This document shows, in pieces, positions 11,880 to 64,000 of a stretch of DNA of 64,000 bases (position 1 is its first letter; each line of letters opens with the position of its first letter). Both the position numbers and the translations under genes were made by a program. The notes beneath the pieces are model-generated. The model was not told where the DNA came from, made no database searches, and saw nothing but the letters and a program-made list of their open reading frames with translations. This DNA comes from Heterodontus francisci (taxonomy: Eukaryota), in the NCBI RefSeq assembly GCF_036365525.1, contig NC_090385.1:59044581-59108580 (forward strand), written 5' to 3'.

Positions 11880-12603
11880 GTGCGACATCTTAATTTTTAA
11901 ATTATCATCTGTGTTTTTATATCTTCCATAACCTCACCCCTCCCTGTCTCTGTAACCTCCTCCAGCACGACAACTGTCCAAGATCATTGTTCCACCATTG
12001 GTCAGCATACCTTCAGCTGCCAAGGCCCTATGGGGAGATGGTGGCATAGTGGCAATGCCAGAGCTAGTAATCCAGAGACTCAGGTTAATTCCCTGGTCAC
12101 ATGGGTTCAAATCCACCCCAGCAGCTGGTGGAATTTAAATTCAATTAAGTAAAAATCTGGAATTGAAAGCTACTCTCAGTAATGGTGCCATGAAACTATC
12201 ATCGATTGTCGTAAAAACCCATCTGGTTCACTTTCGGGAAGGAAAGCTACCATCCTTACCTGGCCTGGCCTACAGGTGACTCCAGACCCACATCCTTGTG
12301 GTTGAGTCTTAACTGTCCTCTGAAATGGCCTAGTTGTCAAGGGCAATTAGGGATGGGCAACAAATGTTGGCCTTGCCAGCCAGACCCACATCTGATGAAA
12401 GAATAAACAAAAGCTCTGGAATTCCCTGCTGAAATCTCTTTGCCTTGCTACTGCTCGCTCTTCATTTAAGATGCTCCGTAAAACAACCTTCTTTACCTGT
12501 CCTCATATCTCCTTATCTGACTCAATATGAAATTTGTTTGATAATCTTTTTGTGAAGCACCTTGAGGTGTTTTATTATGTTAAAATTGCTAATATAAATG
12601 CAG
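11880..12603 (+). mobile_element. L2 3' fragment split by a SINE (12031-12412)
   Basis: ttttaaattatcatc...ctctgtaacctcctccagc; resumes at ctctggaattccct (12413); L2 tail aagcaccttgag...tataaatgca. Confidence 0.75.
12031..12412 (+). mobile_element. tRNA-headed bipartite SINE (tRNA head, LINE 5' UTR, CR1-like 3' tail)
   Basis: A-box TGGCATAGTGG (12042) and B-box GGTTCAAATCC (12104). The middle (12235-12335) matches 61834-61952. The tail caagggcaattagggatgggcaacaaatg... matches the LINE tail at 31656-31730. Confidence 0.85.
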
Positions 12604-20557: not shown

Positions 20558-21175
20558 GGGCTGCATTTTAAGAGTCTGCCGCTGAAGTAGGTGGCGGACA
20601 TAAAAAAAATGTGCCCCGCCCGCAATGGCACCGCGTCACGGAACCACCATGATTTCAAACGTTGCAGCTCATTTGCATGACCGTGACGCCCATCCCCCGC
20701 GATGACGTGGAGGGGGGCGGGTGAGCCGTCGCTGCCGCCATTTTTAAAGGGCTTATAGCCCTCAGTGGAGATTCAAAAATTCAAGGGCCAGATCAGTTCA
20801 ATTACCACAAGACACAATTAAATTATCTTTAAAAGCATTTTCCCACCGTCCCCCACCCCCCAACCTCAATGACATTTTCAGACATTCGTGCTCTTTTGCC
20901 CCCGGAATTCGAATAATGAGACAATCGTCAATGGTTTCATGGTCACCATTAGACTAGATTTTAATTCCATTAATTGAATTCAAATTTCACCATCTGCTGT
21001 GGTGGGATATGAACCCAGAGCATTAGCCTGGGCTCTGGATTGCTAGTCCAGTGACATTACCTCTATGCCACTGCTGTCAGGGTCGGTGGCAGGCCTCCAC
21101 CGCACAGATATTCATTGCCCCCCACCCCACCACCGTCACCGTTCCCGACGGCCGAGGGGCTTTAAAATCCAGCCC
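20558..21175 (+). mobile_element. Non-autonomous Harbinger/PIF-type element (MITE), containing a SINE head fragment (~20915-21076, minus strand)
   Basis: TIRs GGGCTGCATTTTAAG and CTTTAAAATCCAGCCC; internal motifs shared with the copies at 27150, 29015 and 40771. Confidence 0.75.
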
Positions 21176-31655: not shown

Positions 31656-34600
31656 TTTTTTTTTATTCGTTCGTGGGATGCAGGCATTGCTGGCTAGGCC
31701 AGCATTTATTGTCCATCCCTAATTGCCCCTGAGAAAGTTGTGGAGAGCTGCCTTCTTGAACCGTTGCAGTCTATGGGGTAGGTACACCCACAGTGCTGTT
31801 AGGAAAGGAGTTCCAGGATTTTGACCAGTAACAGTGAAGGAACGGCGATATAGTTCCAAGTCAGGATGGTGTGTGATTTGGAGGGGAACTTGCAGGTGCT
31901 CGTGTTCCCATGCATCTGCTGCCCTTGTCCTTCTAGATGGTAGAGGTTGTGGGTTTGAAAGGTGCTGTCTAAGGAGCCTTGGTGCATTGCTGCAGTGCAT
32001 CTTGTAGATGGTACACACTGCTGCCATTGTGCGTCAGTGGTGGAGGGAGTGAATGTTTGTGGATGGGGTGCCAATCAAGCGGGCTGCTTTGTCCTGGATG
32101 CTATCGAGCTTCTTGAGTGTTGTTGGAGCTGCACCCATCCAGGCAAGTGGAGAGTATTCCATCACACTCCTGACTTGTGCCTTGTAGATTGTGGACAGGC
32201 TTTGGGGAGTCAGGAGGTGAGTTACTCATCACAGGATCCCTATCCTCTGGCCTACTCTTGTAGCCACGGTATTTATACGGTTATTCCAGTTCAGTTTCTG
32301 GTCAATTGTAACTTCCAGGATATTGATAGTGGGGGATTCAGCAATCATAATGCCTTTGAATGTCATGGGGAGATGGTTAGATTCTCTTTCGTTGGAGATG
32401 GTCATTGCCTGGTACTTGTGTGGCGCAAATGTTACTTGCCACTTATCAGCCCAAGCCTGGATATTGTCCAGGTCTTGCTGCGTTTCTACATGGGCTGCTT
32501 CAGAATCTGAGGAGTCACGAATGATGCTTAACATTGTGCAATCATTAGTGAACTTCTCCACGTCTGATCTTATGACAGACGGAAGGTCATTGATGAAGCA
32601 GCTGAAGATGGTTGGGCCTAGGACACTACCCTGAGGAACTCCTGCAGTGATGTCCTGGAGCTGAGATGATTGACCTCCAACAACCACAGCCATCTTCCCT
32701 TGCACTAGTTACACCTCCAACCAGCGGAGAGTTTTCCCCCTGAATCCCATTGACTCCATTGTGCTAGGGCTCCTTGATGCCATACTCGGTCAAATGCTGC
32801 CTTGATGTCAAGGGCAGTAACTCTCACCTCACCTCTTGAGTTCAGCTGTTTTGTCCATGTTTGGACCAAAGCTGTAATGAGGTCAGGAGCTGAGTGGCCC
32901 TGGCAGAACCCAAACTGAGTGTCACTGAGCAGGTTATTACTAAGCAAATGCCGCTTGATAGCACTGTTAATGACACATTCCATCACTTTGCTGATGATTG
33001 AGAGTAGACTGATGGGGTCGTAATTGCCTGGGTTGGATTTGTCCTACTTTTTGTCTACAGGACATACCTGGGCAATTTTCCACATTGCAGGGTAGATGCT
33101 AGTGTAGTAACTGTATTGGAACAGCTTGGCTAGGGGCACAGCAAGTTCTGGAGCACAGGTCTTCAGTACTATTGCCGGAAATTGTCAGGGCCCATAGTCT
33201 TTGCAATATCCAGTGTCTTCAGTCATTTCTTGATATCACGTGGAGTGAATGGAATTCGCTGAAGTCTGGCATCTGTGATTCTGGGTGGATGGATTATCCA
33301 CTTGGCACTTCTCACTGAAGATTGTTGCAAATGCTTCAGCCTTATCTTTTGCACTGATGAGCTGGGCTTGCCCATCATTGAGGATGGGGATATTTGTGGA
33401 GTCACCTCCTTCAATTAGTTGTTTAATTGTCCACCACCATTCACGATTGGATGTGGCAGGACTTCAGAGCTTAGATCTGACACGTTGGTTGTGCAATCGC
33501 TTAGCTCTGTCTATCACATGCTGCTTATGCTGTTTGGCATGCAAGTAGTCCTGGGTTGTAGTTTCACCAGGTTGATACCTCATTTTGAGGTATGCCTGGT
33601 TGTCATGCAGGACCCCACCTGTCAAGATTGAGGCACACTGGTTTTGTCATATGCACATTGATTTTGAACTGCTGCTGGTTCAAGGAAATGACTTGTTGAA
33701 CAGATCAGCCTTGGCTGGAAAAAACATTTGCATGCTAACAAACGGTGCTTGTGTAGACAAAGGACCATTCCCTGACACATTCAACCTATAATGGATGTTG
33801 ATCACCAGGAAGTAAGGGGATGGGGAAGTGCATTCCAGGGTCTGCTGGGGTGATGCAATACATAGGGGCCACGACTGGTTGGATCTGCTGTCACATGACT
33901 AATTGACTGTTCCAGGGTTTTTTGAACTCGCCACAGAAAATTTGAGGGGAAAGACTGTTTCCTCCTGGACTGAGAAGATCACTCCTGTCTGCTTCCATCG
34001 CTTTCTCACAAGCCTCTGAATCCACTGAAGACATATGAACCCCGGGAGAGAAAAGTCTCCTATAGTGAACAAGGTTTAAGAAGAATACTGGGTCCCAAAG
34101 AAAAGCAAGAACTATCTAAAATCAAGGACTCTACAGTGAGCTCGAAGAACCATAACAAACACTGTTCCGATATAGCCTCAAACCTTTCTGTTTTATTTTT
34201 TCTTCCGCTCGTTTCTATCTTTATTTGCATGTGTATATCATGTATGCATGCTAGCGCGGGCATGTTATGTATCTGTAGGCATTAACCGAATTGGAGTTTA
34301 AGTTTAATAAATTTAAACTTTTCTTTAAACCTAAGAAAACCTGTTTGTGCTGGTTTCTTTGTCTTATAATTGGAAAGTGGTGAATAAGGATTCACCAAGG
34401 TAGAGCTAAAAACGCAGTGTGTTTAAAATTAAACCCTGTTATAGTAAGACTGTGTGAAGGCTGAAAGGGATCCCTAGACCCCTTTCTCACTGGGTCTTAA
34501 CAGAAATTTGGGTGCTAGCATCCAGAATTGACCCACAGACAAACGAGAGTAATTGGAAGTGGGAAGCCAAATTGTTCCCAATTAAAAAAGAGCAAGATTT

Positions 34601-37600: not shown

Positions 37601-39180
37601 AAGTTTTAGGATTTATGAATAAATGGAAATGAATGAGAGAAATGCATGCTTGTTTTTCTGTATCATATTTCCTCTCAACCCTTTTAATGAAATGCTCTTG
37701 TCTCAAATTGCATTTCATTCTGCTGGGTGTGGAGGTGTCATGCAGGCCCACACCTGCCAAGATTGAGGCACACTGGTTTTGTCATATGAGCATTGATTTT
37801 GAACTGTTGCTGGAGCAAGGAAATGACAGGTTGAACAGATCAGCCTTGGCTGGAAAAAACATTTGCATGCTAACAGATGATGCTTGTGTAGACAAAGGAC
37901 CATTCTCTAACACATTCAACCCACAAAGGATGTTGATCATCAGACAGTGAAGGGATGGGAAACGCATTCCAGGGCCTGCTGGGGTGATGCAATCCACAGG
38001 GGCCACGACTGGTTGGACCAGCTGTCACATGATTAATTGACTGTTCCAGGGCTTTTTGAACTAGCCACAGAGAGTTTGAGGGGAAAGACTGTTTGCTCCT
38101 GGACTGAGAAGATCACTCCTGTCTGCTCCCATCTCTTTCTGACAAGCCTCTGAATCCACTGAAGACACATGAACCCCAAGAGAGAAAAGTCTCCTACAGC
38201 GAACAAGATTTAAGAAGAATATTGGGCCCCAACGAAAAGCAAGAACTATCTAAAATCAAGGACTCTACAGTGAGCTCGAAGAACCATAACAAAAATTCTT
38301 CAGATATTGCCTCAAACCTTTCCATTTTATTTTTTTCTTCTACTCTTTTCTGTCTCTATTTGCATATGCGTATCACGTATGCATGCTAGCGTGGGCACGT
38401 CGTGATTCCGTAGACATTAACCAAATTAGAGTTTATGTTCAAGTTTAATAAATTTCAACTTTTCTTCTTTAAACCTAAGAAAACCTGTTTGTGCTGGTTT
38501 CTTTGCCTTATATTTGGAAAGCGGTGAACAAGGATTCACCGAGAGCAAGCTAAAAACACGGTGTGTTTAAAATTAAACCCTGTTACAGTAAGACCGGGTG
38601 AAGGCTGAAAGCGAACCCTAGACACCTTTTTCACCGGGTTGTAACACTGGTGCTGCTCCCAGCATGTCCTCCTGCACTGTTCATTGAACCAGTGTTGTTC
38701 CCTGGGCTTGATGCCTATGGTAGAGTGGGGTAAATGCCAGGCCATGAGGTTACAGATTATAGTTGAGTACAACTTTGCTGCTGCTGATGGCTCACAGTGC
38801 CTCATGGATGTCCAGTTTTGCATTGCTGGATCTGTTTGAAATCTATCCCATTTAACATGGTGGTAGTGTCACACAACACAATGGAGGGTATTACGTCTCC
38901 ACAAGCACTGTGTGGTGGTCACTCCCACCAATACTGTCATGGATAGATGCTTCTGCGGCAAGCAGCTTGTTGAGGACAAGGTCAAGTATGTTTTTACCTC
39001 TTGTTGGTAACCTCACCACCCGCAGACCCAGTCTAGCAGCTATGTCCTTTAGGCCTCAGCCAGCTCATTCAACAGTGGTGCTACTAAGATACTCTTGGTG
39101 ATGGACATTGAAGTCCCCACCCAGAGTACATTCTGTGCACTTGCCACCCTCAGAGCTTCCTCCAAGTGGTGTTCAACAAG
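31656..39180 (-). mobile_element. CR1-like LINE, T4-free family, copy 1 (31656-33600 plus 38652-39180), interrupted by Gmr1 element A
   Basis: Reads GVPQGSVLGPTIFSCFINDL, ALDIKAAFDRVWH and GDFN (~39110). The sequence is continuous across the TSD CTGGT; A-rich tail at 31656. Confidence 0.9.
33601..38646 (+). mobile_element. Gmr1-like Ty3/Gypsy LTR element A, non-autonomous (Gag-SCAN-CCHC, PR, IN zinc finger; no IN core, RT or RH)
   Basis: LTRs 33601-34502 and 37736-38646 (TGTCA...TAACA); 5-bp TSD CTGGT; tRNA-Pro-like PBS at ~34508; PPT gggtgtggagg. Reads PEAYSQKFR...ILLEEFK (SCAN), CFHCNKAG and NWPKLRKDVVEYYRSCHMYQ. Confidence 0.92.
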
Positions 39181-39774: not shown

Positions 39775-40250
39775 AAGTTGTTCTTGGGATGTGAACATCA
39801 CTGGTAAGGCCAGCAATTATTGTCCATCCCTAATCACGCTTTAAAAGTGGTGGTCAGCTGCCTTCTTGAACCACTGCAGTCCATGTGGTGTCGGTACACC
39901 CACAATGCTTTTTTCTGTAGTGGTTTGATACAACTGAGTGGCTTGCCAGCCCATTTCAGAGAGCAGATAACCACAATTGCTGTGGGTCTGGAGTCATGTG
40001 TAGCCCAGACTGGGTAAGCATGGCAGGTTTCCTACCCTGAAGGACATTAGTGAACCAGATGGGTTTTTACAACTCTCTGGTAGTTTCATGATCATTAATG
40101 AGACTAGCATTTTATTCCAGATTTATTAATTAATTGAATTTAAATTCCCCCAGCTGCTGTGATGGGATTTGTACTCATGTCTCCAGAACATTAGGCCAAG
40201 TCTCTGGATTACCAGTCCAGTAATATTACCATTATGTTACTGTTTCCTCA
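39775..40250 (-). mobile_element. tRNA-headed bipartite SINE with a different (longer) LINE junction than the 12031 copy
   Basis: Same head and middle as 12031. It extends to gttgtatcaaaccactacagaaaaa, then joins LINE ORF2 C-terminal sequence gcattgtgggtgtaccgacaccacatggactgcagtggttcaagaaggcagc and the tail. Confidence 0.8.
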
Positions 40251-47020: not shown

Positions 47021-50000
47021 TTAATGGTATTGGTGGGGAGTATATACCCATCCGTTTGTATCAAGTGCACCTAGAGTGTGACCTAAAGTCTGGGATGGTA
47101 ACTGCAGGAGTTGTCCATAGTTTGCCAGTAAGTGAAATTAACCTACTCCTCGGGAATGGTTTGGCTGGAACAAAAGTCTCACTTTCTCCTGTAGTCACAG
47201 AGAAACCAAGTGAAGTGAAAGAAACAGAACAATTACAGGAACAAGTTCCAGGAATATTTCCTACATCTGTAGTAACCTGAGCAATGGCTAAACAAGTTCC
47301 ATTGTTCAAGGTAAAATTGTCACCACAGACAGATAGACAAATATCTGAAACTTTCCTTGGGGATTTAGATAATCCAAGTGAGATGTTTAACAAATCTTCT
47401 TTAATCACAGCACAACAAGCTGATCCAGAGTTACATAAAATAGCAAATCAAGTCTGACAGAAGCTGAGGTGACAGGAGTTCCAGAAGGCTATTATGTTGG
47501 AGACAGGGTTCTGATGAGGAAATGGAGACTGCCTCATAGATCTGCGGACGAAGATTGGACAGTTGTTTGGCAGGTAGTAGTACCACCTAAATATCGCCAG
47601 GAATTATTAAGGTTACCACATGACATTCCTATAGCAGGACATGTGGGGATCCAGAAGACCAAATCACGTATAAGTCAACATTATTACTGGCCAGGTCTTA
47701 CTAAGGACTGTGGTGCAGTTTTGTAAAACATGCCATCTATACCAGACTGTGGGAAAACCACAACCTGCCTTAAAACTGTCACCTCTAATACCCATGCCAG
47801 TTATTGAGGAACCATTTAGTAGGGTATTGGTAGACTATGTAGGACCTTAACTGAAAACAAAAGTGGGACACCGATATATACTCACTATCATGGATATGGC
47901 TGTTCGATTTCCAGAGGACATTCCCTTGAGGACAATTACTGCTAAGGTAGTAGTAGAGAAGTTATCCTAATTCTTTACGAGATATGTATTACCTATTGAA
48001 ATTCAATCCGATCAGGGTTCCAATTTTATGTCTAACATATTTCAAGAAATTATGGGTAATTTGAGTATTGAACAATTAAAATCTTCAGTATATCATCCAC
48101 AGATACAGGGAGCTTTAGAAAGGTACCATCAAACTCTCAAAACAATGGTTTAGGGCATACTGTCATGAATATCCCCATGATTGGGATAAAGGGCAAGATT
48201 TTCTTTTATTTGCCACCAAAGATTCACTGAATGAGTCTACAGGTTTTAGTCCTTTCGAATTGGTTTACGGATATGAGATAAGAGGTCCACTAAAACTAAT
48301 CAAAGACAGGTTCTTAGAACAGAGTTCTGTACTAATCTTCTGCACTAGACAATGCATCTGTGTTCCGGGAAAGGCTCACGAAAACTTGCAATGTGGCTCA
48401 GGAACACCTTAAAACATCCAAAACCACTATGAAAAAATGGGCAGACAAGAACGTAAAGACGCAAACTTTTCAACCACGGGATGAAGTGTTAGTATTATTA
48501 CCTTTACAGGATGAACCATTAAAAGCACGGTTCAGTGGTCCATATAAAGTGGTCAAAAGAGATGGTAAAGTAAATTATTTGATTGACACCACAGATTGCT
48601 GGAAAAAGAATCGGCTGTGTCATATCAATATGTTAAAGCAATATTATCGCAAGGAGGAGGAAAAGCCAGTACAGGTATGTCAGGTAATAGGGACAGTGAG
48701 GAATGAAAGAGAGCATGAAGATGAGGCAGAAGGAGGCCTAGACAATTCTCAAATTGAACCTGCTACTATCCGGTTAGCTAATACAGAATGACTAGGAGAA
48801 TTGGACAACATGCTTTCGTACTTAGATACAGAACAACGAGAAGATCTAACAAGGCTACTCACAGCACTTAAAAGAGTCTGTAGGGATAAGTCAGGATGTA
48901 CAACCTTAGCCACACATGTTGTGGATGTAGGGGAATACATTCCTGGAAAACAGCATCTGTACCACTTAAGTCCAGAAAAACAGGCCAAAGTAAAAGCAGA
49001 AATCCAATACATGCTGGAAAACAATTTAATTGAACCTAGTCAAAGCAGCTGGAGCTTACCATTAGTATTAATGCCTAAACCTGATCAGTCAACCAGACTT
49101 TGCATATACCACAGAAAAGTCAGTGCAATAACAAAGGCAGACCCCTACCCAATTCCTCGCTTGGAAGACGTGTATTAAAAGAGTGGGCGGTGCCATATTT
49201 CTTACAAAGATATATTTGTTAAAGGGATACTGGAAAGTTCCTTTAACACCCTAAGCTAAAGAAATATCAGCTTTTGTTGCACTAGACAGTCTTTATCAGT
49301 GCAGAGTGATGTCATTTGGGCTAAAAAATGCCCCAGCAATCTTTCAGAGACTAATGAATTAAGTCAGTGTTCCCAACTGTGTAGTATATCTTGATGTACT
49401 AATATACAGTAACACTTGGAAGGAACACTTAAAACAGCTAGAAACTCTTAAAAAAATTAATAGTAGCTGATTTAGTGGTAAATCTGGCAAAAAGCGAATT
49501 TGCAAAAGCAAGAATGACCTATCTCGGGCATACAGTGGGGGAAGGACAAGTGTTGCCGAGAGTGGCAAAAGTACAAGTCTTGGTGGAGTTCCTTATCCCT
49601 AAGACTAAGCGTGAATCATGAGGTTTTTGGGAATGTGTGGTTTCTACAGAAAATTTGTTCCAAATTTCTGTACTGTAGCTCCACCATCAGATTTGCTACA
49701 GAAAAAGAAAACCAAGGTAGTGTGGTCAGGGGAAAACTGGGCATCTTTTGAAAAGCTAAAGGCAATTTTGACTGATGAACCAATGTTGGCTGCTCCAAAT
49801 TTTACCAAGCCCTTCAAGGTAGCGATTGATGCTAGTGACCTGGGGGTTGGTGCACTCCTATTACAAGATGACAAATTGGGCATAGAAAAACAAGTGGGAT
49901 ACGTTTCAAAAAAACTGAATTGCCACCAAAAACGTATTCCACCCTGGAAAAAGAAACTTTAGGCCTATTGGTGGCTCTCAAACATTTTGAAGTATATGTC

Positions 50001-50297
50001 TGCCATGACTACAGAGAAATACTGATATATACTGACCATAATCCATTCACCTTTGTAGAAAAATTTAAAACCCAAGATGCCAGAATATTCCGATAGAGTG
50101 CACTATTACAGCCTTATCACATAAAGACTGTACACATTTTGGGAAAAAAACAATGTTATTGCAGATGCTTTGCCACAAGTTTAACTTTGTTGAGTTACAT
50201 GAGTAAAGATGGTACAAAGCAAAACTCTATTAACCACAAGTACAGTGAATGGGGACATGAGTGAAAAAATATGTTTAAAATGTTTTCAACTTCTGTT

Positions 50298-53200
50298 TGT
50301 TACAACCAGGTGAGAAAGGTGTCTAGGAGTCCTTTACTGTCTTCACCTGGTCTTATTGTAACAGGGTTTGATTTTTAAACACACTGTATTTTGAGCTCCC
50401 CCTTTTGGTCAATCCTTGTTTACCACTTTCCAATTATAAGTCCAAGAAATGAGCACAACCAGGTTTTTCTTAGGTTTAAAGAAGAAAAGTGAAATTGATT
50501 AAAACTTACTTAAACTCTAATTCGGTTAATGCCGTCAGATACACGCTGCATGCATTTGCGATACACACATGCAAATAGGGACAGAAAAGAGCAGAAGAAA
50601 AATAAAATGGAGAGGTTTGAGGCAATATCAGAAGAGGGTTTCTTGTTACTGTTTCTGTGTTTCCAGCTCACCGTAGAGTCTTTGATTGTCGACAGCTCTT
50701 GCTTTTCGTTGGAGCCCAATATTTTTCTTAAACCTCGTTCACTGTAGGAGACTTTTCTCTCTTGGGGTCTTCAATGGTTTCCGAAGCTGGTGAGAGCGAG
50801 ATGAGAGCAGACAGGAGAGAGATCTTTTCCAGTCCAGGAGCGAACAGCCTTCTGAGTTCAAATTCCCTGTTGGAAGTTCGAATTCAAAAAACTCCAACAG
50901 TCAGCCAGTCATGTGACCAAACTGGTCCAACTACGTCTGTTTGTGTATTCGGACATTTTAGCAGTTAATCTGGAATGCTAACCTTTCCACCTTCAACGTC
51001 TGGTACCCAAAAATCCATTGCAGATTAAATTGGAGCAGGGAATAGCTCATTTGTCCTTTGAAATGCTTGTCTTTTGATATGTTAATGTCTCTCTCCAGCC
51101 AAAGTCTCCAATTGTTTTTTAAAGCAAGTTCTTTCTTCCACCAACAATCATTTAAAATCCATGTTCATGTGGCGAAATTAATTTTCCTCATTCTTGGCAG
51201 GTGGTGGGCTTGCCTGACACCTCCACACAGAGGGGAATGAAATGTGATTTGAAGAAAAACGGCACATTTCATTAGAGGGTTTTAGAGAAATATAAAATAC
51301 AGAAAGAAAAACCATGCCTAGCAAAAATGGTCTTTTCTGGGTGAAAGGGCTGTTTTAATTTCCCCCTTTTTTTTCTCAGGAGAGTTAGTAGTGGGCGTGT
51401 CTATCCTGAACTCTCTGAGTCATGCAAAGACTTTTGAGTTCAGGGGATGGGTAGTTCCCTTTTCCTCTGACTGTGGAGGAGGAGTCTTTGTTACTATCCC
51501 CTTTGTTCTCTGGGACACTCCGACCTGCAGGTTTTTGTGCAGACTTAACTGCGCTCTCCTGTGACACTTTGACTAGGTGAGGCATCACCCTCACAGTTTC
51601 TGTGACCCCTAGAGTCTCTCTTTGTCTCTGCAGGTTCCTGTAAATGCTGTTAGTAACTCTGGTGGGGTGCTTCTAGAGTTTGCATTTACATAGGAGGATG
51701 TGGGGTCTAACTTTTCACATTCTTCGAGGTTAATTGACTGGACTGTAGGGGTTTTTCATCCAGGATTCTTCCCGGGCATCCTTTTAAGCTTCCCTCTTGG
51801 TCACCTTTTCTCCTCTTTCTAAACTTTTGCCAGCCATGTGTCTGCGTGTCCCCTTTTGTTCTCAGCGGGGGTCCCTTACCGTTCATCAACCCTCTGCTGG
51901 AGGGTCCTCCTAACACCAGTACAGGACTTAGGGGTGCAGGTTTCACTGTAGGTTGGGGTTTCCCCTCAACCTGGCACATGTGGCAACTCGTGCAGTACTC
52001 CACCACATCTTCTGGAGTTTTGGCCAGTCAAACTGCTGTCTTATGCAGGCTTTGGTCTTTCATATACTGGCATGTACAGCCACTGTAGTCTTGTGGGCCC
52101 TTCTTAATATTTCTCCCCGGTACCTCGGTGGCACCACTAACTGGTGAAATACTGTCAACTCCTTGCCCTCAGGTGTGTGAGGAGACCTCCACTTCCTCAT
52201 CAGTACCTCAATCTTTAAATAGTAGCAATCAGGGACTCCCTCTGTTTCACTTTCAGACTGGGCAGCCTGTGCTAACTCCTGCAATACTGGGTCACCTCGC
52301 TGAGCCTCAGCTAGGGAAAATCATTTCATTCATTCCCTGGGTCCCCTAACTTTCCAAGGAAAGTCTCGGACAGGCAGACCTCATGGTCATTTGCCTGCAG
52401 TGCCAATGCAGTCTCCTCTGGTGGAGCTGGTTTGACCATGGCCTAACCCACTACACATTCAAGGACAATGCAGGGGATTGTCTCCTGCCATGGCCCTGTC
52501 TCTCTGACCTTCTGCGGTCTTTCTTTCACTACTGGGGTGGGGGAGGGGGGGCTACCACCTTCTCCCCCACCAGATCATTACCTAGGAGCAGGTCAACCCC
52601 AGCAACAGGCAAACTAGGAACAATCCCTACAGTCACCGATCCCAAAACTAGGTCACACACCAGGTGCACCCAATGTACAGGTACAGGCATACACTGCCCT
52701 CCAATACCATTCACCACCATTCTGGAGTTCACTGCACTCTCTGGAGGAAAGGTCAGGACTTTTCCCAGTAAAAAGGATCTTGTGGCCCCTATGTCCCTGA
52801 GAATTACTATGGGCTTGCTCTCCCCACTCAAGGGGTATGGGGTTACTTTCCCTTCAGACACAAAACCCTGATAACCTTCAGGAATCCTCTTAACTTTTCA
52901 TGCACTGGCCATAGTAAGCTTCTTGGGTTGCACTCTTAATGCAGTTAAAGCCACCACTTGCTCTGTGCTTTCCATCAAGGTTCCATCTGCACTGAGTGGG
53001 TGTGCCCTGATTAACCCTACAGGTTTTCCCTTTAGATTCCAGCAGTCAGCTTTTAAATGCCCTGCCTTATTACAATGGAAGCACACAGGTCTCCGGGTCT
53101 CACTCTTGCTCACAGCACCTTCCTTTTTGGCTGGAGGAGGGCCCCCTGTGTCTCCTGCTTTCCTTTCTCTTCCAGGTTTGCCTGGATGGATATCACCTTC

Positions 53201-55359
53201 CTTATCTTTCTCCTTTTTGGATTTGTGGGGGTGATTAGGAAAGGTTCTCCCCTGGGAAACCAACTTCTAAATTAAAGCAAACTCATCGGCCAGAACTGCC
53301 ACTTGCCGGGCTCCCTGAACCGCTGCTCCTCTACATGAGTCTTTATTGAGAATGGGAGAGAGTTTTTAAATTCCTGTAACTGGATTACTTCTCTGAAAGT
53401 CTCATAGCTGAGTTGTATTTTTAAAGCCATCAGTCACTGGTCAAAAGCCAGCTGCTTACTTCTTTCAAACTCCAGATAAGTTTGATTGGCTTGCTTTTTG
53501 AGGGTTCTAAACTTTTGGTAATAGGCTTTGGGTACTAATATCTATGCCTCGAGGATAGCATTTTTGGTCAGTTCACAATTTGATGAACTCTCATCTGGCA
53601 ACAAGGAATAAACCTCATGGGCTTTTCCGGTTAATTTGCTTTGCAATAAGAGAGACCAGGTCTCAGCTGGCCATTTTAGCTGCCTTGCCAGTTTCTCAAA
53701 AGACTCAAAAAATGCTTCCACATCTTCCTCATTGAATTTTGGAATTAGTTGGGCAAGTTTTAGCAGTCTTGTCCCCAGCACTGAATTATGCTCCTCCATA
53801 TTGGTCATGCATTCACTGGGGTTAGTCTGTCGCCCCCTAGCTAACTCAACCTGCCTCAGCTCTCTCTCTTCAGATTCTTTCTGGAATATTCTTTCTCGCT
53901 CTCTCTCTTTCCTTCTCCTGTCTTTCTTTCTCTTCACGTTCCTGTGGAAGGCTCTCCCTTTCTCTTCCCTTGCTTCTGGAAGGCTCTCTCTTTCTCCTCT
54001 CCTGCCTCTCTCTCTCTTTTTCCTGTCTCTTCCTTTCTCTTTCCCTGTCTTCTAATTCAAGATTCTTTTATTTCAGTTGTATCTTTGCTAGCAGTACCCT
54101 GTCTAGGTCTACTTCTAACACTGCTTCTGCTTCAGATTCAAGGAAATAATGGTTGGCCACTAGCCTTAGGAGTTCAGACTTCCTAGTTTTGCCCCATACA
54201 GTGATCCCACACTGCTCAGCCATTTTTCTCAACTCCTCCATAGACAGTGCTTTTAGCTTATCTACACCCTGGCTTGTAGAGCTGCTAGCTTCAGTTGCAG
54301 ATATGTTAGTATGCAATCACACACAACCACAAGAAAACCTGCATTAATTTGTTCTTTTTGATTGGGAACAATTTGGCTTCCCACTTCCAATTTCACTTAT
54401 TTGTCTGTGGGTAAAATCCCGGATTAGCCCCCAAATTTTTGTTACAACCAGGTGAGAAAAGTGTCTAGTGGTCTTTTACTGTCTTCACCTGGTCTTATTG
54501 TAACAGGGTTTGATTTTTAAACACACTGTGTTTTGAGCTCTTCCCCTTTGGTGAATCCTTGTTTACCACTTTCCAATATTAAGACCAAGAAATGAGCACA
54601 ACCAGGTTTTTCTTAGGTTTAAAGAAGAAAAGTAAAATTTATTAAAACGTACTTAAACTCTAATTCGATTAACGCCGATGGATACACGCTGCGCCCCCTG
54701 CTAGCATGCATACGCGATACACACATGCAAATGGGGACAGAAAAGAGCAGAAGAAAAATAAAATCGAGAGGTTTGAGGCAATATCAGAAGAGGGTTTCTT
54801 ATTACTGTTTCTGTGTTTCCAGCTCGCCATAGAGTCTTTGTTGACAGCTCTTGCTTTTCATTGGGGCCCAGTATTCTTCTTAAACCTTGTTCACTGTAGG
54901 AGACTTTTCTATCTTGGGGTTTGTATGTCTTCAATGGTTTCTGACGCTGGTGAGAGCGAGATGAGAGCAGACAGGAGAGAGGTCTTTTCCAATCCAGGAG
55001 CGAACAGCCTTCTGAGTTCAAAATCCTTGTTGGAAGTTCAAATTCAAAAAAACTCCAACAGTCAGCCAGTCATGTGACCAAACTGGTCTGACCATGTCTG
55101 TTTGTGTGTTCGGCTACCTTAACAGTTAACATGAAATACTAGCCTTTCCAACTTCAACGTCTGGTACTCAAAAGTCCATTGTGGATTAAATTGTCCTTTG
55201 AAGTACTTGTCTGTTGATATGCTAATGTCTCTCTCCAGCCAAGGTCTCCAATTGTTTTTTTAAAGCAAGTTCTTTCTTCACCAACAATAGTTTAAAATCA
55301 ATGTTCATGAGGCGAAATTAATTTTCCTAATTCTTGGCAGGTTGGGGGCTTGCCTGACA
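50298..55359 (-). mobile_element. Gmr1-like element C, non-autonomous, nested in the 3' UTR of element B
   Basis: LTRs 54440-55359 (5') and 50298-51219 (3'); TSD TGTT; PBS TGGGGGCTAATCCGGGATTT (tRNA-Pro-like). Reads CFHCNKAGHLKADC, ILRDIGAT and EYCTSCHMC; same architecture as element A. Confidence 0.92.
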
Positions 55360-56514
55360 TGTTTTACATTGTAATGAAATGATTTCAAAACTAGCGTTTC
55401 ATTTCACCAAGGGCAGAGGTGTTACATGGTTTTTATTTTTGTATTAAAAACTTAGAATACTGTGTGTTTTAAAAAACTGAAAAAGGATTTTTTGGTGGAC
55501 ATTGACACCTGTAAATAGCTGAAATCTTTGGATGTTTTGAAAGGAAGCCGACTTTGCATACAAGGACAGGAAAGCAGGCAATTTCAAGGAAAGCAGCAAG
55601 GGGTTTGACCTCCTCAGGGCCACTCTTTGAATGACAAGGGAGACTCTATGTCTGGACATGTGACCTGTTTAGGAAGGTTTTGCTTTCATTTTGGACCCTT
55701 GAAAAAGCCAGTGAGGTGGACAAAGAGCAGGCATTTGAAATTAGGTTTTGACCTGCCTGGAGATCAGAAAGGAAGAGCCATAAAACGTGAGACCTCTCTT
55801 TGTAAAGGAATCCTACATCTCTTGAGAAGAAATCCTGTATTTCAAAGGTGGCAGATTCCTATTGCCTCCTGTCTCTGAAGAATCCCTGCATCAAGTATGG
55901 TTCCTGTTGTCTCCTGTGTTTTAAGAAATCATGAAAGCTGAAGAAATCTTGTTCTGCTATCCTGCTGCTGTAAAACCTAAGACAACTTGTTGTTGCACCC
56001 CTGATGAAAGACCTATGTGAAGCCTGCTGCAGTTGAATTGCCTTGAACATCTACCCATCACAGACATTTCAGTAACCTCGTCTGGAGAGACTTCGAGTGG
56101 TATCCGACTATTCGACTCTGGGATACCTTACCAAACTGAAGAACCTCTTACCAGAACGTGATAAACTAAGTTATTTTATTATTCCTTCTATTCCTATGAA
56201 ACAGCTGTAAACCAAAATCCTTTCTCCCCAGTTAACCGTTTTATTAAATGTACGTGTGTGTGTGCATGAGGGCTAGGGAAATAAGGAGCTTTTTGTATAT
56301 AGATTTATCTCACTATTGGTTAAGACTTGTTTTTATAATAAGTAGTTAATATTGTTGTTGATTAAAGAAACTAGTTGGTGTGCTTTATTCTGTGGGACAA
56401 ATAGAGTATGTAATTGGCTGGTTTTCGGTAGGTGGGAAAGTTTAGTGATATGTTGTGACCCGTGGAGAAGTGGGACTGAATTAACAGTGCACTCCTCCCA
56501 CCTCGGTTGTAACA

Positions 56515-57378
56515 AAAGGAAGTGACTTATAAGGTCACCAGAAAAATTGGTAAGCCCGAGGATTGGGAGCAATTTAAAATCCAACAAAGAAGGAAGAAAC
56601 TGGTAAAGAAAGGGAAAATAGATTATGAATGCAAGCTAGCTAGTAACATAAAGGTGGGCTTTAATAGCTTCTTAAGGTATGTGGAAAGGAAAAGATTAGC
56701 AAGGATGAATGTGGGTCCATTGCAGGCAGAGTCAGAAGAGTTTGTGGTGGAGAATGAGGAAATGGCAGAGAGACTAAACAATTACTTTGTGTATGTCTTC
56801 ATGGAGGAAGACACAGAAATTCTCCCAAAATACGAGGGAACCAATGGACTTGTAAAAATGAGGAACTGAAAGAATTAGTATCAATAAAGAGGTACTGCTC
56901 AAAAAGTTATTTGGATTGAAAATTGATAAATCCCCTGGACCAGATGAGCTACATCCCAGAGTACTGAAGGAGGTGGCTATAGAGATAATGGATGCATTGG
57001 TGGTTATCTTTCAAAATTCTATAGAATCTAGAAGGTTTCCTGCAGACTGAAAATTAGCAAATGTAACCCCACTATTTAAGAAGGGAGTGAGAGAGAAAAC
57101 CCGAAAATACACTCCTGTTAGTTTGATGTCAGTAGTAGGGAAAATGATAGAATGTATTAATAAAGGATGAGATAACTGGACACCTAGAAAATAATATGAT
57201 TGGGCAGAGTCAACATGGATTTATGAAAGGGAAATCATGTTTGACAAACATGTGGAGATTCTTGAGGATGTTACTTGCAGCATAGATAAAAGAGAACCAG
57301 TGGATGTGGTGTGTTTGGATTTTCAAGAGGCTTTTGATAAGGTCCCACACAGGTTAGTGAAAAAAAAAGCACATGGGA
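56515..57378 (+). mobile_element. CR1 ORF2 mid fragment
   Basis: Reads KSPGPDELHPRVLKE, ANVTPLFKKG and VDVVCLDFQEAFDKVPH. Confidence 0.9.
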
Positions 57379-58660
57379 TTTTTTTTTCTATTCGTTCATG
57401 GGATATGGGCATCGCTGGCTAGGCCAGCCCACCCCTGATTGCCCGTGAGAAGGTAATGGTGAGCCACCTTCCTGAACTGCTGCAGTCTTCGGGTGTAGGT
57501 ACACCAACAGTGCTGTTAGGAAGAGAGTTCCAGGATTTTGACCCAGTGACAGTGAAGGAATGGTGATATAGTTCCAAGTCAGGATGGTCTGTGGCTTGGA
57601 GGGGAACTTGCAGGTGGTGGGTTGCCAATCAAGTGGGCTGCTTTGTCCTGAATGGTGTCGAGCTTCTTGAGTGTTGTTGGAGCTGCACTCATTCAGGCAA
57701 GTGGTGAGTATTCCCATCACCCTCCTGACTTGTGCCTTGTCGATGATGGACAGGCTCTGGGGAGTGAGGAGGTGAGTTACACGCGACAGAATTCCTAGCC
57801 TCTCACCTGCTCTTGTAGTGACGGTATTTATATGGCTATTCCAGTTCAGTTTCTGGTCAATAGTAATTCCCAGGACGTCGATAGTGGGGGATTCAGCGAT
57901 TGTATAGCCATTGAATGTCGAGGGGAGATGGTTAGATTCTCTCTTGTTGGAGATGGTCATTGCCTGGCACTTGTGTGGCGCGAATGTTACTTGCCACTTA
58001 TCAGCCCAAGCCTGAATATTGACCAGGTCTTGCTGTGTTTCTACACAGACTGCTTCAGTATCTGAGGAGTTGCGAATGGTGCAATCATCAGTGAGCATCT
58101 CCACTTATGACTTTACGATGGAGGGAAGGTCATTGATGAAGCAGCTTAAGATGGCTGGGCCTAGGACACTACCCTGAGGAACTCCTGCAGTGATATCCTG
58201 GAGCTGAGATGATTAATCTCCAACAACCACAACCATCTTCCTTTGCGCTAGGTATGACTCCAACCAGCAGAGAGTTTCCCACAGATTCCCATTGACTTCA
58301 GTTTTGCTAGGGCTCCTTGATGCCATACTTGGTCAAATGCTGCATTGATGTCAAGGGCAGTCACTCTCACCTCACCTCTTGAGTTCAGCTCTTTTATCCA
58401 TGTTTTAACCAAGGCTGTAATGAGGTCAGTAGCTGAATGTCCCTGACGGAAACCAAACTGAGCGTCAGTGAGCAGGTTATTGCTAATCAAGTGCCACATG
58501 ATAGCATTGTCGACTACACCTTCCATCACTTTACTGATGATCGAGAGTAGACTGGTGGGGCAGTAATTGGCCAGGTTGGATTTATCCTGTTGTTTATATA
58601 CAGGACATACCTGGGCAATTTTACACATTGCCGGGTAGATGCCAGTGTTGTAGCTGTACT
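57379..58660 (-). mobile_element. CR1-like LINE, T4-free family, copy 2
   Basis: Reads QFGFRQGHSATDLITAL, ALDINAAFDQVWH and WADKWQVTFAPHKCQ; same tail as 31656. Confidence 0.9.
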
Positions 58661-58669
58661 GCAGTTGTA

Positions 58670-60650
58670 GCTGATGAACATGACACCACCTGGGCAGATG
58701 TCTTTTTGATAAAGGTAACTGCCAGGGGGTGGAAGGATTCCAATTGGCTTAAGTGACTATCATGTTCTGGACCAAAAGCGTAGCACACCATATTGTGTGG
58801 ACTATGATTGTTGGTATACCAGCTTTGGATAAATAGCGAGGGAAGGAGGGTCCCTTCAAACGATAGTCGGCAACCCACCGAGGAGAGGGAAACTTTGAAT
58901 CCAAACCTACGGCTCGGAGACCTCACTGCTGTCATCCCAGTTCACTGGGCCATGACAGATGAGCTCTAGGCTTAAAGGGTGGGGTCAGTCAGCACAAACT
59001 GTACTCCACCTTAAGGCACCACTGCGCAGGCAGGAAGGAAATCCATCCACCCCAACTATACCTCAACAAGTAAGTCCTGTAGTGACGGGAAAGGGGTGAA
59101 AATGCAGGTGTAAGATGGCAAAGGCAGCCGCAGTTCCAATCCTGCATGCAGGCGGCTCAGGATATTGTTCATTTTGATAATACTTTGAGATGACATCATC
59201 ACCCGGTAGCACCCTGAGCGACCAAGCAGCCTTTTTGAAGGACAGCACTGCTTGCTCCAAAATTGGAGAGGGGCCTAGAAAAGGTGGCCTAAACAAATGC
59301 TCATCTCCATACCACCCAGTTTACTGTTGGCTTGCCGTGGTCAACGGGCCTCTCTTAATGCGGTCAAACTACGACAGAGAAGGAAATGCAAACTCCTAAC
59401 CTCGCTTCAAAAGGTGAGAAAAGAAGCAAAATTCTGAAACTTGCCTGCTCGAACATGAGAACAATGCCCAACTCTGGTGACAACAGCTTCCCTCAATGAC
59501 ACTCAGCCCTGGTGGCCCATGAGCTAGCCAGACGAGACATTGATATAGCGGCACTGAGTGAGGTCTGCTTCTCAGAGTAAGGTAGCCTAACAGAACACAA
59601 CGCTGGCTACATCCTCTATTGGTCAGGTAGACCTCAAGGTGGACAACGCCTCTTCGGTGTTGGCTACATGGTGAAAAGGACTTTAACCACTAAACTTTCA
59701 AGCCTGCCCATCAGCCATTCTGAACGCATCATGTCCCTGCGCCTGCCCCTCCAAAACCAGCAGCATGCAACCCTCAGCAGCATTTATGCTTCAACTTTGA
59801 AGGCTAACCCAGCTGACAAAGATAAGTTCTACACAGATCTCCATGATCTCATCCAGGATGCCCCTCCCAAGGCCAAAATTGTTGTCTTTGGCGATTTCAA
59901 TGCCATGGTGGGCCATGACAGCCTGGCATGGAAGGGAGTGCTCGGAAACCATGGAGTTGGAAACTGTAATGAAAACGGACGCTTACTCTTGGAACTCTGT
60001 GCTGAAAAGCAGCTGTCCATAACCAACTCCTCTTTCAACAAAAAGATCGCTTCAAGACCACATGGAAGCATCCCCGCTCTAAACACTGGCACCTGATAGG
60101 TTACATCTTGGTGTGCCAGTGTGACCTAAAGGATGTCTTGCATATTAGAGAGTCATGCCCAGTGCTGACTGTCATGCAGAACACCAACTTGTTTGTTCAA
60201 AGCTGAACTTCCACTTCAAGCCTAAGCCCAAGAACAGGCCTAGAGATAACGCATCAAAGAAATTTTGAGTCAACAACCTGCAAACCTCATCTTGCAGAGA
60301 TAGATATCAAGCAACTTTACAGACTAGACTGGAAGATCCTGATCTCACTGCTGATTCTACTCCAGAAGAACTCTGGGAACACATCAAAGCTGCAGTACTG
60401 GATACTTCCAATGAGGTCATTGGGCCCAGCAACAAGAAGAATAGGGACTGGTTTGATGAAAATGACAAGGAAATTCAAGATCTGCTAAAAATAAAACGTC
60501 AGCTCATCAGGCTGACCTGGCTCAGCTGGCCAGCTAAGGGAAAAAGACAGCCTAAAGTCAAGCATGCAGCACCCTTCAACGTAAACTGAGGAACATCCAA
60601 AATTACTGGTGGATCACACTTGCCGAAAAAACTCAACTGTACGCCAGGTT
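58670..60650 (+). mobile_element. RTE-clade LINE, 5' UTR and endonuclease, 3'-truncated
   Basis: Reads ALVAHELARRDIDIAALSEV...YWSGRP...GVGY...SERIMSLRLPL...GDFNAMVG...GVGNCNENGRLLLELC...DWFDENDKEI. Confidence 0.9.
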
Positions 60651-61249
60651 TTTGATGAAAAGATATCCTGACAGAGACATATGGAATACATTTTCTTAAC
60701 TGCACTCTATCCCAGACACCTGTGCTAAGTAAAAATATTGGACTGCTTTTTTTTTGGGCTAAACTAAAGGAAAACTGAGTGCGCGAAATTTATTTCTGTA
60801 GGACTGCTTCTAGCTCTAGTGCTGCTTTGCAGGTCTACCCGCAGAGTTGTAGCACATGAGGTGCTACTGACCGCTTCCTGCACGGCATGAGGCAGTTGGA
60901 GCCCAAAGTCACAGAACGTGTGCAATCATGATGTCACTGACACCAACCGGCTGATATAACACTACAGTACCAAAATTGGCTAACGAATGTTCAGGCAACG
61001 CCTTCCTCATTCACTCCTGAAACAACACGCATTAGAAAGCAAGATGGGCCTGTTCTGGAGCTATTTAAAGGGCCACTCAACAAGTTGCAGCTGAGCTGCT
61101 TTTGACTTGTGCTCAGGCAATGTTGGTGGAAGCATTGTAGTGAATTGCTGGAGGAGTATGAAGGTTTCTGCTGACCACAGAAAGGTAGAAAATAACATTG
61201 CCTTGCATCGGTATGCGGACAGTAGTTGCAGGGACACTTGATCTGCAGC

Positions 61250-61833
61250 ACGAGCAAGACATTCAGAGGAGGAGGCAGAGAGAGGAACCACTTTGAGGAG
61301 GAAGGAGGAGGAGGGTTTTCCTTAGAAGGTGCTACCCCAATAGAATCTTCCAGAAGCACCAGTCCTTTGTTGGGATGAGCCAGTAGCAGTGCCTTAGTGC
61401 ACTTTGCTTCACTAAGCGGGTAGTGATGGAGTTGTGTCACCTCCTTCATGATGACCTGGAGCCTCAACCCAGGGGAGTACAGCCTTCCCAGTGGCTGTGA
61501 AGATCAACATCACCCTTTGTTTCTATGCAACGGAATCCTTCCTGCTGGGAACCAGTGACACCAGCAGCGTGTTGTAATTTGCTCTCCACAGAAGCATCCG
61601 GGAGGTAACAGAGGCGCGGTATACGAGGAGAGGGGACAACAATCTCTTCTCCCTGGGCAGGAAAGACCAGGATGAAAAGGCAAGTGGGTTTGTTAGTATA
61701 GCAGTTTCCCAATGGTGCAGGGCACCATCGACTGCACACATGTGGTTCTGTGCGCCCTCAAGTCAATGGGGAGTGGTACCACAATTGCAAGTGTTACCAG
61801 TCTGTCAATGTGCAGTTTGTATGTGATCAGCAT
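61250..61833 (+). pseudogene. Harbinger transposase N-terminal relic, cut by a LINE insertion
   Basis: Reads RRCYPNRIFQKHQSFVGMSQ*QC, LPVAVKINITLCFYATESF, FPMVQGTIDCTHV and VQFVCDQ. Confidence 0.85.
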
Positions 61834-64000
61834 TAGGGAAGAAATCTGCTGTCCTTACCCAGTCTGGCCTACATGTGACTCCAGATCCACAGCAATGTGG
61901 TTGACTCGTAACTGCCCTCTGAAATATCCTAGCAAGCCACTCACTTGTATCAAACTACAACCGAAAAGTCAAATAACTGGATGGAACACTTGGCACTGAC
62001 CCAGGCACCGGATATGATAAAGGCACAGCCTATCCAGTTGACGCTGCAAAGTCTTCTTCACTAACATCTGGGTACTAGTGCCAAAATTGGAAGAGCTATC
62101 TGACAGACTAGTCAAACAACAACCTGTCAGTCATACTCACCAAATCAGACCCTACAGCCAATGCCCCAGACTCCTCCATCATTCCTGGGTATTTCCTGCC
62201 CTGTTGGCAAGACAGACCCACCAGAGGTGGCAACACAGTGATATACAGTTGGGAGTGAGTGACCCTGAGCAACCTCAACATTGACTCTGGACTCCATGAA
62301 ATCTCATGGGATCAGGGATGGGCAACAAATGCTGGCCTTGCCAGCAACACCCATGTCCCATGAAATAAATAAAAAAGAGTCAAACATGGGCAAGGAAACC
62401 TCCTGCTGATTACCACCTACTGCCCTCACTCAACTGATGAATCCATACTCCTCCATGTTGAATACCACTCGGAGGCACTCAGGGTAGCAGGGTACAGGAT
62501 GTACTCTTGGTGGGGGACTTCAATGTCCATCAATCATTAAGAGTCACTTGGTAGCGCCACTACTGACTGAGCTGGCAGGTGGTAAGACAACCAACAAAAG
62601 GGAAAATCCTACTTGACCTCTTCCTCGCCAATCTATCTGTCACAGATGCATCTGCCCATGACAGTATTGGTGGGCGTGACCACCACACAGTCCTTGTAGA
62701 GACAAAGTCCTGTCTTCACACTGAGGACACCCTCCATCATGTTGTGTGGCACTACCACCTTGCAAAATCGGATAGAATCAGAACAGATCCAGCAGCTCAA
62801 AACTGGGCATTTATGAGGCACTGAGGGCCATCAGCACCAGCAGAATTGTACTCCTTCATAGTCTCTAACCTCATGGCCCAGCATATCCCTCACTCTACTA
62901 TTATCAAGTCAAGGCACCAACCCTGGTTCAATGAGGAGTGTAGGAGAGCATGCCAGGAACAGCACCAGGCATACCCAAAAATGAGGTGCCAACCTGGTGA
63001 AACTACAACACACGACTACATGCATGCTAAACAGTGGGAACAGCATATGATAGACAGAGCTAAACGATCTAGCAACCAATGGATCAGATCAATTGACTGC
63101 AGTCCTGCTACATCCAGTCACGAATGGTGGTGGACAACTAAGCAACTAACCGGAGGAAGAGGCTCCAAAAACATCACCATCTTCAAGGATGGTGGTGCCG
63201 AGCACATCAGTGCAAAAGACAAGGCTGAAGCATATGCAACCATCTTCAGCCAGAAGTGCCGAGTGGATGTTCCATCTCAGCCTCCTCCTGATGACCCCAG
63301 TATCACCAAAGCCAGTCTTCATTTAATTAAATTCACTCCATGTAATATCAAGGTACAACAGAGTGTATTGAATAGAAAAGGTACTGGGCCTCAAAAGCAT
63401 CCTGGCTGTAGTGATGAAGACGTGCTCCAGAACTAGACGTGCCCCGAGCCAAGCAGTTCCTGTACAGTTACAACACTGGCATCTACCCAACAATGTGGAA
63501 AATTGCCCCAGGTCTGTCCTGTCCACAAAAAGCAGGACAAATCCAATCCACCAATTACCACCCCATCAGTCTACTCTCAAACATCACCAAAGAGATGGAA
63601 GGTGCCATCAACAGTGTTATCAGTCAGCACTTACCACTAACCCACTCATCGATGTTCAGTTTAAGTTCTGCCAGGACCACTTGGCTCCAAACCTCAGTAT
63701 AGCCTTGGTCCAAACATAGACAAAATAGATGAATTCCAGAGTTGAGGTGAGAGGTACTACTCTTGACATCAGGCAGCAATTAACTGATAGGATCATTAAG
63801 GAGCCCAAGTAAAATTGAATCAATGGGAATCGGGGAAACACTCCACTGGCTGGAGCCAAACTTAGGACAAAGGAAGATGGTTGTAGTTGTTGGAGGCCAA
63901 TCACTTCAGCCCCAGGACATTGCTGCAGGAGTTCCTCAGGGCAGTGTCCTCGGCCCAGCCATCTTCAGCTGCTTCATCAATAACCTTCCCTTCATCATAA
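61834..64000 (+). mobile_element. CR1-like LINE, T4-free family, copy 3 (5' UTR, EN, start of RT); runs off the window
   Basis: The 5' UTR is shared with the SINE middles. EN starts at ~62050 (TNIW.LVPKLEEL...GDFN...DH); GVPQGSVLGP at ~63928. No ORF1 lies between the UTR and EN. Confidence 0.9.

Follow-up and report, generated by a model that had tools for sequence, protein, structure and literature searches.

A CR1-like LINE with a tRNA-type head and few T clusters in Heterodontus francisci: a candidate protein-coding transcript of RNA polymerase III

Family copies in the 64-kb window

The window, that is, the whole 64-kb stretch of DNA that was analysed, holds three copies of one CR1-like LINE family (A, B and C, with approximately 79-91% identity to one family majority), together with shorter pieces carrying the same ends (Table 1). 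Copy A is 5'-truncated at element position 209, with loss of the head, and extends approximately 300 nt beyond the window end, up to element position 2715. Its 5' part matches the bodies of the two bipartite SINEs of the window, and the endonuclease begins approximately 100 bp behind this SINE-like segment, as the initial annotation had claimed. The two parts of B correspond to one copy interrupted by an LTR element (33601-38646).

Table 1. Copies, fragments and derivatives of the tRNA-headed LINE family in the window
Feature	Position	Strand	Element positions	Basis or remark
Copy A, tRNA-headed LINE, old subfamily (L049)	61833..64000	+		79-81% to family majority
5' UTR segment common to family SINEs	61833..61963	+	209-339	sequence match
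Family in-frame AUG-GCC-UAG site in copy A	61924..61932	+		AUG decayed, stop retained
Decayed single frame, APE endonuclease then reverse transcriptase	62060..64000	+		Pfam PF03372, PF14529, PF00078 on natural copies L042, L034
3'-tail fragment of same family, inserted in copy A	62302..62376	+	3223-3298	
Copy B, 3' part, young type	31656..33600	-	1335-3301	91%
Copy B, 5' part	38647..39178	-	784-1339	split from 3' part by LTR element
Copy C, 5'-truncated	57380..58661	-	1835-2890 + 3044-3302	
Bipartite SINE: tRNA head and body fused to tail	12033..12412	+	1-310 fused to 3222-3300	
Second bipartite SINE	39781..40234	-	~1-339 fused to ~3155-3300	old-type head
Head-only fragment	20921..21074	-	6-177	

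The sense strand of these copies, counted over 61834-64000 (+), 31670-33600 (-), 38652-39180 (-) and 57390-58660 (-), contains no run of four or more T (T4) in a total of 5,898 nt, which nevertheless include 19 TTT runs and 30 A4 runs. The comparison LINEs of the window do contain sense T4: three in the CR1 at 46259-46890, two in the CR1 at 56515-57378, and just one in the 1,251 nt of the RTE at 59400-60650. These counts bear out what had been noticed by eye, namely the lack of sense TTTT in the three copies, their common A-runs and the presence of TTTT in other LINEs; the figure of approximately 5.9 kb stands as a count, but it does not amount to 5.9 kb of independent evidence, because the three copies belong to one family.

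Other features were recorded in the window. LTR retrotransposon copies with broken gag/pol-like frames, nested with LINEs, occupy 33601-38646 and 43767-56514, with paired LTRs at 33601-34502/37736-38646, 43767-44610/55661-56514 and 50296-51219/54438-55359. An open frame at 10147-10596 (-) displays an Ala-rich start and a RING-like Cys pattern, and presumably resembles the first exon of a Siah E3 ligase. Directly upstream of copy A, at 60860-61830 (+), lies a decayed coding-like stretch whose sequence gives the impression of a transposase-derived nuclease.

Anatomy of the full-length element

A block of approximately 3.3 kb is shared across 20 extended loci. The majority of 19 copies is composed of a tRNA-type head with A and B boxes, a SINE-like body of approximately 300 nt, a 944-codon frame encoding endonuclease and reverse transcriptase (RT), a short 3' UTR and an A-run. 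The frame has 975 codons in the majority of another set of 29 copies, in which a stop due to CpG decay is resolved. The 5' end is sharp; the A box begins 9 nt from it and is followed approximately 65 nt later by the B box, both being recognised with what we take to be the A/B-box consensus; neither ARAGORN nor Rfam called a tRNA in the head. Only 440 nt separate the 5' end from the endonuclease, and the ORF1 of canonical two-ORF CR1 elements is absent, with no other long frame and no other shared 5' end, which agrees with the initial annotation on the lack of an ORF1. Natural copies match APE endonuclease (PF03372/PF14529) and RT (PF00078) in Pfam, in one frame.

The copies are dispersed and 5'-truncated, with a common 3' end and an A-rich tail; the A-run contains AATAAA. 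Target-site duplications were not evident in 21 full-length copies, and none of the 19 copies examined is fully intact, the longest frame having 685 codons. Young copies lie 3-6% and old copies 10-16% from the young majority, and the old and young majorities differ at 208 of 3,251 sites. Depending on the query, a first look at the 6.0 Gb genome gave 9,077-17,709 candidates, which are not copy numbers. An extra G often precedes the 5' end, but a templated G-run, which is likewise present in the SINE, would look the same. As a separate observation, several CTAG sites are transversion hotspots at their T (T>G, T>A): at five of the 14 (element positions 140, 307, 387, 1820 and 2186) such changes affect 12-31% of copies, compared with a mean of 1.6% over T sites; genomic mutation bias or copying error may be responsible.

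The head as part of the LINE

The 5' ends were surveyed in 58 copies selected by mid-ORF coding queries, which are the best-scoring copies and not a random sample. Twenty of them begin within 10 nt of the first base of the head, two inside the head, and 36 at scattered positions beyond it; thus the question of whether full-length copies start with the tRNA head, posed by the initial annotation, is answered affirmatively, the remaining copies being truncated. No alternative 5' end is shared, and the 55 upstream flanks gave six pairwise matches with unrelated distances and orientations. When the young head was used as query, all 29 other matches were found to run on into the LINE, two of them across a large internal deletion, and none lay on a short SINE. 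Both the old and the young subfamilies carry the head, and head variants track the LINE subfamilies; divergence between old and young heads reaches 23% over positions 46-110, compared with 5.7% in the ORF, yet the core of the B box is preserved. The head is part of the LINE, as all copies that reach the join share it in identical, collinear form, and the single-ORF LINE with a tRNA-type head that had been inferred from truncated copies is the actual architecture of the full-length 3.3-kb copies.

The same arrangement could in principle arise as an artefact, through SINEs inserted upstream of truncated LINEs or repeated template switching, with the absence of T4 due to chance. Many SINEs carry this head (a first look gave 14,253 candidates) and the absence of T4 is not significant when taken alone, as would be expected from such an account; conversely, it is opposed by the invariant join, by the young head variant being seen only on LINE copies (29/29), by the tracking of subfamilies by head variants, and by the significant depletion of TT and TTT described below. 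The 5'-end survey and the young-head matches have already largely refuted the artefact, which we consider extremely improbable.

SINE derivatives

The SINEs at 12033 and 39781 consist of the first 310 or 339 nt of the LINE joined to its last ~80 or 145 nt, respectively. The latter represents a family, 29 of 29 other loci examined being composed of these two parts with a nearly identical junction, while a junction equivalent to that of the SINE at 12033 is present in contigs of three of four runs. Because there are two different SINE junctions, the data are best fitted by internal deletions of the headed LINE, which would have produced two or more SINE families that share its head and tail, although a truncated LINE may first have captured the head of a SINE. 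Two headed copies with large internal deletions were also noted (L234, 422 to 2318, and L237, 427 to 3105), and are possible intermediates in the birth of new SINEs.

Depletion of terminators and T clusters

T4 is absent from both the young and the old subfamily majorities, in agreement with the purged consensus that the initial annotation had predicted. Finding no T4 in the family majority has a probability of P=0.012 when bases are shuffled and of P=0.08-0.23 when codons are shuffled (0.09 for a synonymous shuffle and 0.20 for a CpG-aware codon shuffle); the absence of T4 by itself is therefore modestly beyond chance, a weak signal that does not reach significance against codon shuffles.

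T clusters in a wider sense were analysed mainly by a CpG-aware synonymous codon shuffle of the ORF. In the young ORF, TT was observed 76 times vs 88.0 expected (P<0.0005), TTT four times vs 10.4 (P=0.0015), and windows with T at 4 of 5 positions once vs 6.4 (P=0.010). The old ORF gave similar figures (TT, 75 vs 86.9; TTT, 3 vs 9.8; 4-of-5-T windows, 1 vs 5.5), which are not independent of the former because the two majorities differ at so few sites. Windows with A at 4 of 5 positions are not depleted (40 observed vs 41.9 expected), making general homopolymer avoidance unlikely, and neither pyrimidine tracts nor AGGT are depleted, T clusters alone being affected. All four TTT of the ORF are Phe codons, none lies across a codon junction, and the TTA codon is not used at all. 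The possibility that the remaining TTT codons result from post-insertion CpG decay was rejected, as three of them are fixed in both subfamilies. A junction-TT test gave P=0.02-0.03 with CpG decay removed, vs P=5e-7 with decay included. After insertion, copies acquire T4 by drift: the 66 young rows (192,676 nt) hold 38 T4 vs 886 A4, although a few rows may represent one locus counted twice.

The shortest working terminators measured in HeLa cells are TTTT, TCTTT, TATTT and TGTTT (PMC8466645). TTTT, TCTTT and TGTTT are absent from both majorities, and TATTT is absent after position 60; approximately half of the young copies carry a TATTT at position 56, between the A and B boxes, this sequence being a partial terminator in the same report. 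Control majorities were built likewise from 19 copies each of a CR1 (L162-L180) and an RTE of the same genome, and hold 20 and 14 overlapping minimal-terminator matches, respectively. The RTE control displays no depletion (TTT, 25 vs 19.1 expected; T4, 5 vs 4.5), and the CR1 control has TTT as expected (42 vs 41.5), but under-uses T4 (5 vs 11.0, P=0.006) and 4-of-5-T windows (34 vs 44.2, P=0.018), which counts against T4 scarcity as a trait specific to the tRNA-headed LINE.

The element was further compared with 78 metagenome relatives (80 loci minus two with frames under 400 codons). The observed-to-expected ratio of TTT is 0.38 (young) and 0.31 (old) vs 0.81-1.23 in these relatives, and the density of 4-of-5-T windows is 0.35/kb vs 7.2-60/kb, the two control LINEs also having at least 7/kb. 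T4 is present in 77 of the 78; the sole T4-free relative, L125, was discarded as a second purged case, as its GC-rich frame is incomplete and contains the expected amount of TTT (10 vs 10.5). A pattern search gave no A and B boxes in the 78 relatives, many of whose contigs may miss their 5' ends. Taken together, the claim of a coding region purged of terminators stands as regards the absence of T4 and the depletion of TT and TTT, which goes beyond base composition and codon usage, whereas T4 counts alone do not sustain it, neither against codon-preserving shuffles nor in comparison with the T4-poor control CR1. The architecture and the T-cluster depletion of this LINE are real and unusual.

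Protein, selection and translation start

The old and young ORF majorities differ by 101 synonymous vs 52 non-synonymous codon changes. The ORF has evolved under purifying selection, and thus the frame was translated along the master lineage. Phe constitutes 1.9% of the protein, vs a median of 4.3% in homologues of at least 800 aa. Four homologues (P0003, P0004, P0007 and P0009) are equally Phe-poor, with 1.65-1.85% Phe and no FF; these are single-ORF LINE proteins on contigs of 3.4-3.6 kb, and form their own clade near the tRNA-headed LINE, in a weakly supported grouping. The DNA of these homologues was found neither in metagenome contigs (best match 43% among the matches listed) nor in viral contigs. 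Their clade is a candidate second terminator-purged lineage; since its members are headless or of unknown 5' end, low Phe may predate the head. The closest named protein, the shark P0001, annotated as an aldo-keto reductase, is 86% identical over approximately 215 residues (43% of the query), and is likely an annotation chimera or an exonised copy.

From stop to stop, the frame has no Met before the endonuclease, the first one being at codon 284, and the only in-frame upstream AUG sits two codons before the UAG that opens the frame. This family AUG has G at -3 and +4, which we take to be a favourable start context, and lies in frame with the endonuclease in 8 of 12 old and 48 of 66 young copies, at a modal distance of 144 nt (6/12 old and 39/66 young copies). 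The corresponding leader of 48 codons is basic and frame-conserved, and is similar to the Met-started leaders of homologues, most of which are annotated with a Met shortly before the endonuclease. CAA directly follows the in-frame UAG, a context presumed to favour read-through. Several out-of-frame or short-frame AUGs lie upstream of the proposed start. Among them, an AUG-led overlapping uORF of 47 codons in young copies is unlikely as a required start because its AUG is missing in 9 of 11 old copies.

The T of the in-frame UAG is altered in 13 of 78 copies, mostly by T>G or T>A, and these copies are scattered on the tree. A special RNA modification or a selected sense codon at this site was considered and rejected, as these transversions recur at other CTAG sites and no convincing linked alleles are common to the variants; CTAG being a general hotspot, TAG is the master state. 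A conserved IRES-like fold in the 5' region was not supported (z -1.16, with almost no two-sided changes), and a structured 5' element or ribozyme was likewise discarded, with no fold support and no significant Rfam family in the 5' region.

Classification and closest known systems

The element displays the features of APE-type LINEs of the CR1 group, namely an APE endonuclease followed by RT in one frame and dispersed 5'-truncated copies, and has the single endonuclease and RT ORF of CR1-Zenon (PMC6740152). In a FastTree analysis of 83 rows, which left out homologues under 880 aa and had no named Zenon reference, it falls on a long branch within a 51-row group that includes lepidopteran proteins, in its own subgroup with 89% support; unnamed lepidopteran proteins are found among its homologues at 34-39% identity. 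By the box consensus that we assume, it also has the 5' tRNA-derived head with A and B boxes of SINE2 elements; conversely, only its two deletion derivatives, and not the 3.3-kb LINE, are short and non-coding as SINE2 elements are.

CR1-Zenon-like LINEs have been reported in the whale shark (10.1101/443036). CR1-Zenon and its SIDE Persaeus (PMC6740152) resemble the present case in their single endonuclease and RT ORF and in the internally deleted derivatives made of 5' and 3' parts; however, Persaeus keeps the Zenon 5' end without tRNA homology or a Pol III promoter, while here the LINE itself is headed. The sampled relatives differ further in retaining T4 runs.

In a survey of SINEs built on bipartite LINEs, only RTE and Vingi 5' parts reportedly feed SINE bodies. 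Such SINE2 families (CoeSINE4, SINE2_Gav and SINE2-1_EC; PMC5786205) similarly join a tRNA head to LINE 5' and 3' parts, but there the head is placed on the SINE only, whereas here it is common to the coding LINE. The same report mentions a LINE consensus in Repbase containing tRNA-like sequence, RTE-1_DAn and relatives, which differs in belonging to the RTE clade and is presented in one sentence that gives no position, promoter role or terminator analysis.

The shark pair formed by the HE1 V-SINE and the HER1 LINE (PMC3747384) is also a tRNA SINE and a CR1-like LINE with a common 3' tail. Identity with HE1/HER1 was rejected, as the V-domain motif taken from the supplement of PMC4824008 has no match at 3 mismatches in the head of L033 and only one chance-level match outside the element, while the motif is present in another SINE of the window. 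This separate tRNA SINE, with copies at 19638-19968 (+) and 22353-22692 (-), carries a V-domain-like motif, has a tail similar to the 3' end of the CR1 at ~46800, and is probably of HE1 type. Regarding the Deu domain of DeuSINEs (SacSINE1), one 17-nt motif from the bivalve BivaMD alignment, a single motif of non-shark source, is absent.

R2 retrotransposons are LINEs co-transcribed by Pol I within rDNA, whose ribozyme-released, uncapped RNA is translated without a conventional AUG start. If transcribed by Pol III, the tRNA-headed LINE would resemble R2 as a non-Pol II LINE with uncapped RNA translated without a conventional AUG, while differing from its Pol I transcription and ribozyme release; no Rfam family reached significance in the 5' region of the tRNA-headed LINE. 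The engineered Pol III coding reporters (PMC8223928; Gunnery and Mathews 1995, cited therein) similarly combine an A/B-box promoter with an ORF freed of TTTT, and a terminator-free reporter behind type 2 Pol III promoters yields protein in cells (PMC8223928); these constructs differ in being artificial and short. No description of a tRNA-headed CR1-like LINE or of a Pol III-transcribed LINE was found in the literature searched, a search whose reach stopped short of most subscription journals, Repbase and Dfam.

Transcription and translation: proposed mechanism and alternatives

In its sequence, the element has the layout of a type 2 Pol III unit, its 5' end lying just upstream of the A box and both T4 and TVTTT being absent up to the 3' end, the TATTT at position 56 excepted. 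We infer that this autonomous single-ORF LINE of the CR1/Zenon-like group is probably transcribed by Pol III, a reading favoured because the start is fixed in front of the A box, the B box has been retained, no other promoter is present, T clusters have been lost in a strand-specific manner and the head is common to SINEs; the 3' end, with its AATAAA-containing A-run, fits Pol II as well. TFIIIC and Pol III would start at the tRNA-derived internal (type 2) promoter of the head, and Pol III would read the whole element, since terminators would have been purged, and stop at the first T-run in flanking DNA. The uncapped RNA would be translated at a low level, most simply from the in-frame AUG with subsequent read-through of the UAG, or else by re-initiation at a non-AUG codon, and the protein would copy its own RNA by target-primed reverse transcription.

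Alternatively, the RNA could be made by Pol II, the captured SINE head being a mere 5' UTR or a Pol II promoter, and T clusters being scarce for other causes, for example because the protein was Phe-poor by descent, because U-rich elements of splicing or polyadenylation are avoided, or because copying is biased in this lineage. This would accord with the normal status of LINEs as Pol II transcripts (PMC5786205), with the ability of some Pol III promoters to recruit Pol II (PMC8223928), and with the equally Phe-poor homologues, the under-use of T4 by the control CR1 and the AATAAA at the 3' end. On the other hand, it leaves aside a 5' end fixed 9 nt before the A box with no other promoter region, a B-box core retained in a fast-evolving head, a depletion that touches T clusters only and spares pyrimidine tracts and AGGT, TTT at or above expectation in both same-genome controls, and the same head leading non-coding SINEs. 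We judge transcription by Pol II to be unlikely.

The RNA data bear on a second alternative. Twenty-three of the 24 runs listed, from seven organisms and a metagenome, hold part of the element, and four presumed RNA assemblies cover it completely or almost completely, with coverage rising toward the 3' end; these are contigs, which carry no start, strand or cap information. Labour could thus be divided, Pol III making the template RNA and the protein being supplied in trans from capped Pol II read-through of some copies. Such a division accounts for the head and the terminator purge with no need for uncapped translation, and the whole-length, 3'-rising coverage is what host read-through of truncated copies predicts; nevertheless, purifying selection and an unbroken frame in the master lineage are easier to explain if the copied RNA encodes its own protein, and a capped RNA would meet the same upstream AUGs and in-frame stop. 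We regard this division as quite unlikely.

Returning to Pol III as the polymerase that makes the coding RNA, the separate parts can be joined in a broader reading, which we consider about evenly poised: a natural, autonomous coding retrotransposon transcribed by Pol III from end to end from a tRNA-derived promoter, whose 2.8-kb ORF would have been recoded, including its Phe residues, to escape terminators, and whose uncapped RNA would be translated through an in-frame stop. It would be an abundant shark LINE and the parent of SINEs by simple deletion, and a Phe-poor sister lineage elsewhere may do likewise.

Significance

That eukaryotic protein-coding RNA is made by Pol II, with LINEs relying on Pol II and SINEs on Pol III, is a rule with few natural exceptions. 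If the proposed mechanism is true, this LINE would constitute a 3.3-kb coding Pol III unit, in which a whole enzyme gene was recoded by selection for Pol III read-through, and it would indicate that uncapped RNA can support autonomous transposition; should both Pol III transcription and translation of the same RNA hold true, the finding would be close to categorically new. Furthermore, the headed LINE offers a short route to new SINEs, which lie one deletion away, and allows the origin of one SINE body to be tested directly.
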